Source of the DNA: Parachlamydiales bacterium
GTDB taxonomy: Bacteria > Chlamydiota > Chlamydiia > Chlamydiales > SM23-39
Reading direction: 5' to 3'
DNA length: 64,000 nt
Assembly: GCA_015661075.1 (NCBI GenBank)
Contig: JACVQJ010000004.1
Span: 32,194-96,193, forward strand
Part shown: positions 18,901 to 21,900 of the stretch, piece by piece
Position numbering within the stretch: position 1 is the stretch's first letter
Layout of the letters: each line of letters starts with the position of its first letter
Made by a program: the position numbers

Positions 18901-21900
18901 TATGGATGATATACATGCGGTTGTGGCAACCAGCGACTTATGAGAGGCTGCATTGCCTCCCAGGTCATGTACCCTTTCTGGCTCCTCCGTGACAGTGTGT
19001 GTCGCCACCTTTGTATGATCAAATAGCGAAAATCGCTCATCGCTTGGCAATTGCCAGGCACTCCAAAATATCTGTTGTGCCCGTTAATAACCGTTTTGAG
19101 CCACTGTCCTGTTTTTGTGATGGGATCATGCATGCGGATTATAAGCTCAGCTTTAATCGCCTTCACTTTCGCATGCAGCCGCTTCTTTATCGTTTGCCGT
19201 TTAATTGCAAACTTACCAGCTCTCGTTTTACCACAGATATGCGTGAATCCGAGAAATGTGCAAGTTTCCGGTTTCTTCTCCTGTCGCTTACTTCGATTTT
19301 CAGCCGCAAATCGGCCAAACTCTATGAGTCGCGTTTTTTCAGGATGCAATTCCAGTCCGAACTTTTGGAGTCGTTCCTTCAGTTCTTTCATGAATTGCTC
19401 GGCATTGCTTCAATCGACTTTTTTCGGCGGTTTTTTAAAATTTATGTTTCCAAAGACAATGAACGGGAAGATCCCTTCCCTCGGAAAGAGATCTACTTTC
19501 TTTATCCTTTTTTAAACAGACTTGCACAGTTAGTTCCTCCTCCACGGAAACATCGGCATCGCTATCATGGAGTTTTGGCTCCCAATTCACCCATTCGGCG
19601 TAAAATTAAAATAGCGCAACTTGAATCCGAGTCATTGAACTTAAGGGAAGAGCATCCCATCCCATTGGCAGAGAAACCTTCTATTTCAAAGCAAGAAGAG
19701 ACTAGGCCTCAAGAATGCAAAAAACCATCCAAAGCATCGCTTTACAGATGGGCCATGCTTCTGGCCAGAATTTTTGAGGTTTTTCCCTTAATCTGTCCCA
19801 AATGCGAGGCGCCGATGAGAATCATCTCGTTTATCCAGGACAGGCACTCCATTCGAAAAATTCTGAATTACATCAACGAACCATCTGAACCGCCAGTAAT
19901 CTCTCCGGCTAGGGGACCGCCGGAGATGGAATTCGACTATAATCAAGAGTAGATATCACGTTTATTTCGTATCTGCAAGAAGCGGGAATAGGGGGAGTCA
20001 TATCTAGTGGATTTTCCGCTATATTTTTTTGAGATTTTCAAACTTAAGAGAGCAAAAGAACGGCCCGTTCACTAGCCCCCTTCCCCGGGAATGGGGGCTA
20101 GTGTCTTTGTGCAATCGTTCGATTCTCAAAAAAGTGCCTTTGAATTTACTATCCTTCTATCACAAAAATCGAAAAATGCGAATTTGGTGATAGTTTTTTT
20201 TGTTGCAAAATCTATCACCAAATCGAAAAAACATTGATTTGGTGATAGATTTTTTGTAAGATGTAAGGGAAAAGGACGTGTATATGGCGGCTCCATTTTA
20301 TGGGAGAGAAAGAGAATTAAAACTGTTGAGAGAGCGCTTGGGGATGAAGATAGCCAGCCTGATCGTAATTAAAGGGCGAAGACGCATCGGTAAAAGCAGG
20401 CTTGCAGAAGAATTCAGCAAGCCGTTTCGGACGATCTCAATTGAGGGACTGCCTCCAAATCATGAATCCATTACAGCCCAAAGCCAACGGACACATTTTG
20501 CGAATAGCTTACAAAGAGTAGGGAAAATTAAAGGTCTGAAAGCTGATGATTGGGACGACCTTTTTTGGCATTTAGGAGAATTGACCAAAAAAGGGAGGGT
20601 CGTCATCATTTTGGACGAGATCAATTGGATGGGTTCCAAGGATGCTACTTTTTTGGCAAAACTCAAAACAGCCTGGGATAAATATTTCAAAAAAAATCCA
20701 CAGCTGATCTGCATTTTAAGTGGTTCGATGTCGGGTTGGATAGAGGAAAATATCCTCAGCAGTACGGGTTTCTTAGGGAGGGTTTCTTTAGATTTGACAA
20801 TTCAAGAGCTCCCATTAATCGAATGCAACCACTTTTGGCGCCCATATGAAAAAAAAATCGCTCCTTTTGAAAAATTCAAGATTCTTTCTGTCACCGGAGG
20901 AGTTCCTCGTTATCTTGAGGAAATAGATCCTAAGCTTCCGGCTGATGAGATGATTCGCCGGCTCTGTTTTAGAAAAGAGGGATTGCTATTTCATGAATTC
21001 GAACGAATTTTTTCGGATCTTTTTTCTAGACGGTCTTCTACCTATAAAAAAATCGTTTCAAGACTTGCGGAAGGCCCTGCTGATATAAACCAAATTTGCA
21101 AGACACTTGAAATGGAAAAAGGAGGGGTAGTCACCGATTATCTCACGGATCTCGAAGAAACCCAATACATTCAACGGTGTTACAGTTGGGATTTTAATAG
21201 CGGAAAGCGGTCAAAGTTGAGTCTTTATCGTCTGAAGGATAATTATCTCCGATTTTATTTAAAATATATAGAACCTAATAAAGGGGCAGTTTCCAAAGGA
21301 ACATTAAAGCACGTTCCCGCTTGGGATTCGATTATGGGGCTTCAGTTTGAAAACTTAGTCCTCAATAATCATTTTTCATTATACCCCATTCTTCAAATTT
21401 CATCCGATGAAATCATAAATAACGGACCTTACTTTCAGCGGTCTACAAAAAACAAAAAAGGGTGTCAAATCGATTATTTATTACAGCTCAGATACAATAG
21501 TTTGTATCTGTGTGAAATAAAATACTCTGCGAAACCAATTGGAGTAGAAGTTCTTGAAGAGATGCAAAAAAAAATAGACCACTTGAAGCAAGCCAAGACT
21601 GTCTTTTCCATACGTCCCGTGCTGATCCATGTGAATGGAGTTACCGAACCGGTGAAAAGAAGTTCTTTTTTCACTTATATTATTGACTTTTCGAGCTTAT
21701 TAACCCGCTAGGCAAATAAAGAAGATGAAAAATCAACACATAGGTTCCAGCTTCGATGATTTCCTTAAAGAAGAGGGGATACTCGATGAGTGCAATGCTA
21801 AAGCGAAAAAAATTAGGAAAAGAGAGCGATTGTTGTAAATGATAATTTTGTTGAACTTTATGAAAATTATGATTCCTAATGACTTTTAGCCACTGAGTCT

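Follow-up and report, generated by a model that had tools for sequence, protein, structure and literature searches.

A candidate phage-defence ATPase-nuclease gene of a Parachlamydiales bacterium and the palindromic array through which it may repress itself

Introduction

Two long palindromes lie directly upstream of an ATPase-nuclease gene, here called gene A, in a 64,000-nucleotide stretch of a Parachlamydiales genome (contig JACVQJ010000004.1 of assembly GCA_015661075.1), and they raise the question of what reads them and to what effect. The whole stretch is referred to as the window, and positions are given in its coordinates. A first-pass annotation, made from the sequence alone, had proposed that gene A is an autoregulated single-gene ATPase-nuclease; the comparative evidence gathered here supports that interpretation, and the parts of it that could be computed held. 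It is likely, judging from this evidence, that the gene A protein, which joins an ATPase, a winged helix and a PD-(D/E)xK domain in one polypeptide with a portable control region, binds its own operators and represses itself.

The palindrome pair upstream of gene A

The proximal palindrome, a predicted operator that is not assigned to either strand, spans positions 20207-20253. Its 18-nt arms, AAAATCTATCACCAAATC (20207-20224) and GATTTGGTGATAGATTTT (20236-20253), are perfectly complementary around an 11-nt loop, with a 13-11-13 core at 20212-20248 and the centre at 20230. The distal palindrome (20157-20193, likewise predicted and without strand) is imperfect, with half-sites CTATCACAAAAATCG (20157-20171) and CGAATTTGGTGATAG (20179-20193), an arm complementarity of 87% and its centre at 20175; its position is conserved in three relatives (L086, L007 and L008). 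An inverted-repeat scan verified the positions and the 13-11-13 geometry that the first-pass annotation had given for palindromes starting at 20157 and 20212, as well as the perfect arms of the second. The two palindromes are direct repeats of each other, 55 bp apart from start to start and from centre to centre, so that the annotated 55-bp period stands, while its description as about five helical turns is approximate only (at 10.5 bp per turn, 55 bp make 5.2 turns). Successive half-sites follow one another at an even distance of about 27.5 bp and alternate in orientation. Under a criterion of perfect inverted repeats with arms of 13 nt or longer and a loop of 3-15 nt, the proximal palindrome was the sole example in the window, and none was found in block-wise dinucleotide shuffles (0/20).

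The open reading frame (ORF) that follows the palindromes extends from 20278 to 21711 on the plus strand. The start codon ATG 20284 was preferred over GTG 20278 on the basis of the N-termini of the closest relatives (MHSPFYGRE and MGAPFYGRE), yielding a gene for 475 aa (20284-21711) that is supported by Pfam, PADLOC, the alignment and an AlphaFold2 model. Because the alignment favours this ATG, the 13-11-13 core ends 36 bp before the start codon, and the previous distance of 30 bp from array to ORF had to be corrected.

The protein encoded by gene A

Four domains were distinguished along the protein, an ATPase (residues 1-215), a helical domain (216-255), a winged helix (256-317) and, after a linker, a domain with the PD-(D/E)xK fold (348-475). 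In the AlphaFold2 model, built on 83 homologues with a predicted local distance difference test score (pLDDT) of 93.7, a P-loop domain is followed by a helical lid, a winged helix and a C-terminal alpha/beta domain. The Walker A (GRRRIGKS, residues 31-38) and Walker B (DE, 111-112) motifs are invariant or nearly so in the 83 sequences. Pfam ATPase_2 (PF01637) scored 49.6 bits against a cut-off of 33.2, DUF4143 reached 23.9 bits, under its cut-off of 28.1, and a search of NCBIfam with the protein gave no meaningful match. The PADLOC model PDLC04984, of the candidate defence family PDC-S27, matched over the full length (E = 1.4e-79; residues 7-462 against positions 4-461 of the 474 in the model).

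The winged helix (21049-21234, plus strand) contains the segment that had been annotated as resembling a winged helix-turn-helix. In the model its first helix (H1) ends at residue 262, H2 covers 268-275, the putative recognition helix H3 covers 281-292 (21124-21159), and the wing (296-317) is made of strands 296-302 and 309-317. Its sequence similarity to the regulator YodB was insignificant (E = 0.76). A fold search with the N-terminal two-thirds of the protein recovered the Pyrococcus Walker ATPase 2qen, plant NB-ARC domains and Orc1/Cdc6, and the module of ATPase and winged helix resembles Orc1/Cdc6 and proteins of the STAND class (signal transduction ATPases with numerous domains).

The C-terminal nuclease motif of the first-pass annotation corresponds to a nuclease-like domain at 21325-21708 (plus strand), delimited by a separate domain model, by fold matches and by invariant residues. 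Modelled alone (pLDDT 91.9), it found its best fold matches in AF1548, NucS/EndoMS, McrC, VC1899, Card1 and MspJI, with scores that were borderline but consistent (E = 1e-3 to 1e-2, probability 0.98-1.0, template modelling (TM) score about 0.5). Residues E356, D397, E411 and K413 are invariant in the 83 sequences. Since the catalytic residues do not vary, both the ATPase and the nuclease look functional, which suggests that the protein is more than a repressor.

The palindrome array across the family

Homologue loci were taken from genome assemblies (n = 80) of Chlamydiota, Verrucomicrobiota, Legionellales/Coxiella, Francisellaceae, Dependentiae and Alphaproteobacteria, and a further 80 from metagenomes. 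The 300 bp upstream of each gene were screened with a fixed definition of the palindrome (7-nt outer arms, 20-21 nt between them, and A-rich and T-rich inner ends). At least one palindrome was present at 61 of 81 loci, compared with 6.3 in shuffles, and at least two at 35 of 81, compared with 0.35; none of the control zones (downstream, in-gene and far upstream) contained two. Among 99 non-redundant loci, the centres of adjacent palindromes were 53-56 bp apart in 70 of 74 pairs, and 54-55 bp apart in 63 of them. By the strict definition an array has one to three palindromes, and up to four were counted by eye (locus L084).

The half-sites follow the consensus nnTC-NN-nAAAT.G and then an A+T-rich centre, the C at position 3 and the AAA at positions 7-9 being almost invariant. 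The locus's own half-site was present three or more times within 300 bp upstream at 111 of 156 loci, and arrays reach up to 8 half-sites. The own half-site had a density of 12.9 per kb in this upstream zone, a 25-fold enrichment over all other zones, where it was 0.4-0.6 per kb (0.43 for the 300 bp downstream). The motif AAATC-N11-GATTT, which had been put forward earlier as a genome-wide test for family operators, proved too narrow, with matches at only 11 of 155 family loci; in this genome it occurs 15 times, 13 of them away from two operator arrays.

Strong palindromes were also found directly upstream of members only 24-31% identical (L168:440-491, L173:439-515, L170:499-533 and L172:561-593), which are carried by plasmids of Emticicia, Butyrivibrio and Rhodothermus and by the Wolbachia phage WO. 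The plasmid homologues are annotated as 'ATP-binding protein', and the Emticicia and Butyrivibrio sites have a common half-site, TTTGGCGGAAT, with the arms facing outward. These distant cases hint at a principle that extends well outside this clade.

In one locus (L057, CAZKFL010000003.1) two sets of operators were observed 70-242 bp upstream of the gene, CATCCGC/CATCCCT at -242 and -188 and GAGCAGC at -125 and -70. The proximal set alone matches the type of its relative L052, and the double set may have been left by a recombination event that replaced the operator or promoter.

Covariation of residue 279 with half-site bases 4-5

Adjusted mutual information (AMI) was calculated between each of 470 alignment columns and half-site bases 4-5 for the 99 non-redundant loci. 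Residue 279 stood out with an AMI of 0.50 (z = 7.4), compared with 0.27 for the next column and a median of 0.05. It was still the top column after the loci were collapsed to monophyletic groups (0.35 vs 0.23), and it was the top column in the genome-derived and the metagenome-derived halves taken separately (z = 6.5 each). In gene A this residue is a lysine (codon 21118-21120, plus strand) in an E-K-G-G turn just before H3, and the corresponding bases of the half-site are AC (TATC[AC]CAAA).

The associations recur in separate lineages. Counted by monophyletic groups, lysine fits with AC in 10 of 15, arginine with CC in 4 of 7, glutamine with CG or TG in 7 of 11, leucine or methionine with AG in 6 of 9, and isoleucine with AA in 2 of 2. 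Counted by loci, and with valine joined to leucine and methionine, the rule is followed by 59 of 79. Two loci (L051 and L104) have a recognition helix like that of their CG-type relatives, yet they carry Arg279 together with CC operators. The pairing is chemically sensible, as lysine and arginine would stand opposite the G of the other strand, and aliphatic residues opposite T. The covariation points to the protein itself as the binder of its operators.

The predicted promoter within the array

A sigma-70-like promoter was predicted for gene A at 20234-20262 (plus strand), with a -35 box TTGATT (20234-20239), a 17-bp spacer and a -10 box TAAGAT (20257-20262). The -35 box lies inside the inner right arm of the proximal palindrome, and the spacer holds its outer right arm. 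The predicted leader is about 15 nt long, and a Shine-Dalgarno-like AAGGA, read from the sequence, is found at 20272-20276 (plus strand), 7 nt before the ATG. Further upstream, a terminator-like hairpin with a T-run (20005-20021) and a G+C-rich palindrome (20070-20103), listed together at 20005-20103 on the plus strand, separate the operators from a transposase remnant, suggesting that gene A probably needs a promoter of its own.

The upstream regions of the other loci were compared after anchoring them on the proximal palindrome. A recurrent sigma-70-like promoter was found with a -35 box TTGATT and a spacer of always 17 bp, the -35 box starting at one of two fixed offsets from the palindrome centre, +3.5/4 in the clade of gene A and +15.5/16 in the clade of its paralogue B (described below), registers that are about one helical turn apart. 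The A-clade register gave the best promoter at 13 loci, with -10 boxes that include TATAAT, TATGAT and TAAAAT, and some of these promoters read TTGATT-17-TATAAT. Predicted leaders at both offsets were mostly of 14-25 nt; among the 13 A-clade loci, L083 and L085 have leaders of about 70 nt and L063 has none. In several loci a third half-site lies near +1. The arrangement is thus consistent with palindromes that sit on the predicted promoter in the same register at many loci.

Paralogues within the genome

The genome (2.01 Mb) contains seven intact close paralogues and four distant ones, an unexpected expansion for a chlamydia (11 copies in 2 Mb). Paralogue B (475 aa, 60809-62236, plus strand; E = 3.4e-80 against PDLC04984) is 53% identical to A and is preceded by a predicted operator pair (60658-60701 and 60713-60756, without strand) with the same 55-bp layout. 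The arms are different from those of A, (G/C)ATCCC(C/G)AAATCG, and Arg279 is accompanied by CC at bases 4-5. Of the seven close paralogues, four (A, B, C13a and C39) have a second palindrome or a further half-site upstream, each with an arm sequence of its own, and in a fifth (C40b) a single clear palindrome is accompanied, at the 55-bp position, by a degenerate second one. In the 130 bp upstream of one distant paralogue (G000:C13:79811-81220, minus strand, 27% identical), three half-sites of alternating orientation were found, AAACGGCACTATC / GATAGTGCCGGTT, which suggests the same principle with a different geometry.

In the whole genome only three pairs of like-armed palindromes 53-56 bp apart were detected, and they lie directly upstream of A, B and C13a. 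The exact half-site of A was found nowhere else in the genome, and single sites with one mismatch were at chance level. The palindromes are therefore not equally frequent at unrelated genes, as remnants of miniature inverted-repeat transposable elements (MITEs) would be, an outcome that the first-pass annotation had named as the one that would speak against its proposal. Among 31 related genomes the family is present in 11, typically in several copies (11, 9, 8, 6 and 4), and it is absent from 20, which include a genome of the same genus. Several of the copies are decayed by stop codons or truncation.

An inverted repeat of 69 nt (60452-60520 / 60554-60622, 83% complementary, 33 nt apart) was observed just upstream of the operators of B. 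Its appearance is that of a MITE, or of a hairpin element, with no relation to the operators.

Single-gene unit and genomic setting

The flanking ORFs were compared at about 78 homologue loci, and none was common to more than five of them, in agreement with the single-gene system that had been proposed. In the closest relatives, DNA similarity starts at the distal palindrome and continues through the promoter and the gene, and no similarity was seen after the stop codon of gene A; only L086 has an extra palindrome copy further upstream within the region of similarity. These bounds indicate that the unit consists of the array plus the gene. No matching operator-type site was found at the 3' end of this unit, where a two-ended mobile element would have one.

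Gene A has a G+C content of 39.7%, compared with 48.5% for the genome, and is a horizontally acquired candidate phage-defence gene. It is flanked upstream by a transposase graveyard, with fragments of IS91-type (Zn_Tnp_IS91 / Y2_Tnp) and DDE (DUF772 / DDE_Tnp_1) transposases at 15307-16784, 17920-18801 and 18999-19952. Downstream there are a NUDIX hydrolase gene (21876-22376, minus strand; match to PADLOC PDC-S07, E = 2.7e-10) and a gene for a phospholipase D (PLD)-family protein with two HKD motifs (22843-23865, plus strand; match to DrmC models, E = 1.8e-23), which together with gene A make up a small island with a defence flavour. A short ORF (MKNQHIGSSFDDFLKEEGILDECNAKAKKIRKRERLL, 21725-21838, plus strand) starts 14 bp after the stop codon of gene A; it has no Pfam match and may be a remnant.

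A proposed model of self-repression

The observations can be assembled into the following scheme. The winged helix would read a half-site of about 17 bp, nnTC-NN-nAAAT.G, in which residue 279 would select bases 4-5, and each palindrome would be bound by dimers of the winged helix. A pair of palindromes whose centres lie 54-55 bp apart would be occupied jointly, probably by a tetramer or a longer ATP-dependent assembly, and the fixed spacing, which fits cooperative binding, suggests that the distal site adds cooperativity. Occupancy of the proximal palindrome would shut off transcription, because this palindrome covers the -35 box and the spacer of the sole plausible promoter. Such negative autoregulation would keep a potentially toxic nuclease at a low and constant level after horizontal transfer. 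The reader residue and the operator letters would diversify together and quickly, which would insulate the seven close paralogues from one another.

Several observations weigh against this scheme. The predicted promoter of gene A is weak (8/12 consensus matches) and was not listed by a stricter promoter scan, so its assignment rests on positional homology with the relatives. A palindrome centred near -40 could also serve an activator, and in STAND proteins the usual role of the winged helix is regulatory rather than DNA-binding. The code of residue 279 is statistical, with 20 of 79 loci that do not fit, and it is not universal, since a prophage-borne clade (L175-L180; 49-50% identical) pairs Arg279 with GA instead of CC. 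In two uncultivated viral genomes of this clade from IMG/VR (L175:619-709 and L176:617-714), two palindromes (ATGGAGACAAAG...) 54 bp apart are present without the invariant C, and the second overlaps the presumed start codon. No residue stood out as explaining half-site position 6 or positions 0-2 when AMI was calculated over the columns. In parsimony tests of co-change (trees of 65 and 99 sequences; 49 independent sister pairs) no column remained significant after correction for multiple testing, and the enrichment of the winged-helix domain was only marginal (p = 0.016-0.035); these tests are weak and saturated, because the operators changed on more than half of the branches (111/196). Finally, a Mantel-type test that correlated sliding windows of the protein with operator distance gave its peaks at residues 115-130, 299-316 and 330-340 and did not pick out the recognition helix; phylogeny is a confounder in this test. 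Among the covariation tests tried, only the identity-based AMI exposed residue 279.

Alternative explanations

The alternative that survives best, although we regard it as improbable, accepts that the protein binds the sites and makes regulation secondary. An ATP-dependent oligomer similar to the origin recognition complex (ORC) or to STAND assemblies would park on the array and silence the nuclease until a trigger arrives, or else the operator-type sequence would also be the target of the nuclease in foreign DNA. The invariant catalytic residues of the nuclease speak for something beyond a repressor, and the half-sites that alternate every 27.5 bp or so, in arrays of up to 8, would suit a filament. 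The similarity of the ATPase-winged-helix module to Orc1/Cdc6 bound to origin DNA points in the same direction, and the operators change faster than simple autoregulation would require. Against this, the array always overlaps the predicted promoter at fixed registers, as expected for a regulatory site, and the genome contains no other copies of the site. The even, alternating half-sites, a conserved inner TCGA element and the ORC-like module nevertheless leave room for a role of the array in docking or assembly.

Taken further, this line of thought leads to a speculative idea, to which we give little credence at present, that the PDC-S27 family, old and very large with its thousands of genes in Bacteria and Archaea, may consist of self-addressed DNA-reading nucleases. 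The address would be a fast-evolving single residue matched by the array at the gene's own promoter. An ORC-like, ATP-dependent assembly on that array would throttle expression and keep the nuclease inactive, and the address could set what the nuclease attacks or ignores. If this were true, such nucleases would provide a methylation-free discrimination between self and non-self, or an incompatibility between selfish elements.

It is very unlikely that the palindromes are origin sites of the iteron or origin-recognition-box (ORB) kind, or the ends of a mobile element, served by an initiator-nuclease like Orc1/Cdc6. This explanation draws on the fold similarity to Orc1/Cdc6, on the repeated sites of their own that usually lie in front of initiator genes, on the patchy, multi-copy distribution of the family (11 of 31 related genomes, up to 11 copies) and on the start of the conserved DNA at the distal palindrome. 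Eleven copies on one chromosome, seven close and four distant, argue against an origin function, however, as do the arrays that coincide with a predicted promoter, and the own half-sites drop from 12.9 per kb upstream to a background density on the 3' side. The comparison of flanking ORFs found no replication or transposition gene that travels with the family gene.

An action of the palindromes in RNA, as leader hairpins that attenuate, terminate or stabilize the transcript, has still less to commend it. A T-run follows each palindrome, and the adjacent arms 2 and 3 can also pair; however, with the predicted promoters located within the proximal palindrome or immediately behind it, most of the array would be untranscribed. 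The mismatches between arms show no G-U bias on the mRNA strand (55 G-T vs 48 A-C), and a terminator scan found none at the palindromes, whose loops are of 11-15 nt and whose stems are A+T-rich. Promoter position, the lack of a G-U excess and the lack of terminators make a reading in RNA unlikely, and the covariation of residue 279 with the arm letters runs counter to it as well.

The weakest proposal, that another host factor binds the palindromes or that they are MITE remnants or products of chance, can point to the 69-nt inverted repeat upstream of B, and it is largely refuted by the different arms of paralogues in one genome, the lack of dispersed copies, the excess of two-palindrome loci over shuffles (35 vs 0.35) and the covariation of the operator letters with residue 279 of the gene itself.

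Significance and comparison with known systems

Self-repression through the array, the reading that we favour, would make gene A an example of a toxic single-gene module able to control its own expression once it reaches a new genome. PDC-S27 is among the commonest candidate defence genes, and the operator array together with the specificity residue would be the first concrete and cheaply testable handle on it. The array gives a defined candidate DNA ligand for binding, structural, ATPase or nuclease assays, and a swap of specificity by a single residue is predicted, in which a change of Lys279 to arginine should move the preference from AC to CC. The set of paralogues is proposed as a natural collection of mutually insulated repressor-operator pairs.

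PDC-S27 has been described as an ATPase domain fused to a domain of the PD-(D/E)xK superfamily, with 3,503 archaeal and 4,562 bacterial occurrences in one survey (PMC12988326). The only published test found of a PDC-S27 gene was made in E. coli B, and that gene was absent from the four systems for which protection against T4, T5 or T7 was reported (bioRxiv 10.1101/2024.09.26.614923). By its full-length match, gene A belongs to this same single-gene family, for which no mechanism, regulation, operators or DNA-reading residue were found in the papers searched; nor was a prior description found in the literature on PF01637, DUF234 or self-regulating STAND nucleases.

The best fold match of gene A is an archaeal-type Walker ATPase of the PF01637 family (P. 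abyssi PABY2304, PDB 2qen; E = 1.6e-11, TM score 0.67 on the target). Unlike gene A, 2qen lacks a nuclease domain, and the papers searched gave neither a function nor a DNA site for it. The initiators Orc1/Cdc6 (PDB 2qby, 1fnn and 1w5t) have the same module of ATPase, lid and winged helix, and repeated inverted sites beside the initiator's own gene, as at gene A; in contrast to them, the gene A protein contains a nuclease domain in addition, the gene is present in many copies per chromosome, and its sites lie on the predicted promoter.

The logic of the arrangement is that of the controller (C) proteins of restriction-modification systems, in which paired palindromic operators upstream of their own gene allow the cooperative, autogenous control of a dangerous nuclease after transfer. 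C proteins, however, are small, separate helix-turn-helix proteins with adjacent 35-bp C-boxes, whereas gene A would combine regulator and nuclease in one polypeptide with sites 55 bp apart. AbiEi and the antitoxins of type II systems are similar in that they place a winged helix on two inverted repeats at their own promoter, in a negative autoregulation of a toxic module; they belong to two-gene systems, whereas gene A has no partner gene. Defence ATPases of the STAND/Avs type share with gene A an NB-ARC-like fold fused to a PD-(D/E)xK effector; unlike them, gene A has no sensor repeat domain, and its winged helix appears to read DNA. What would set gene A apart from these systems is the union of reader, switch and nuclease in a single polypeptide that travels together with a co-evolving array.

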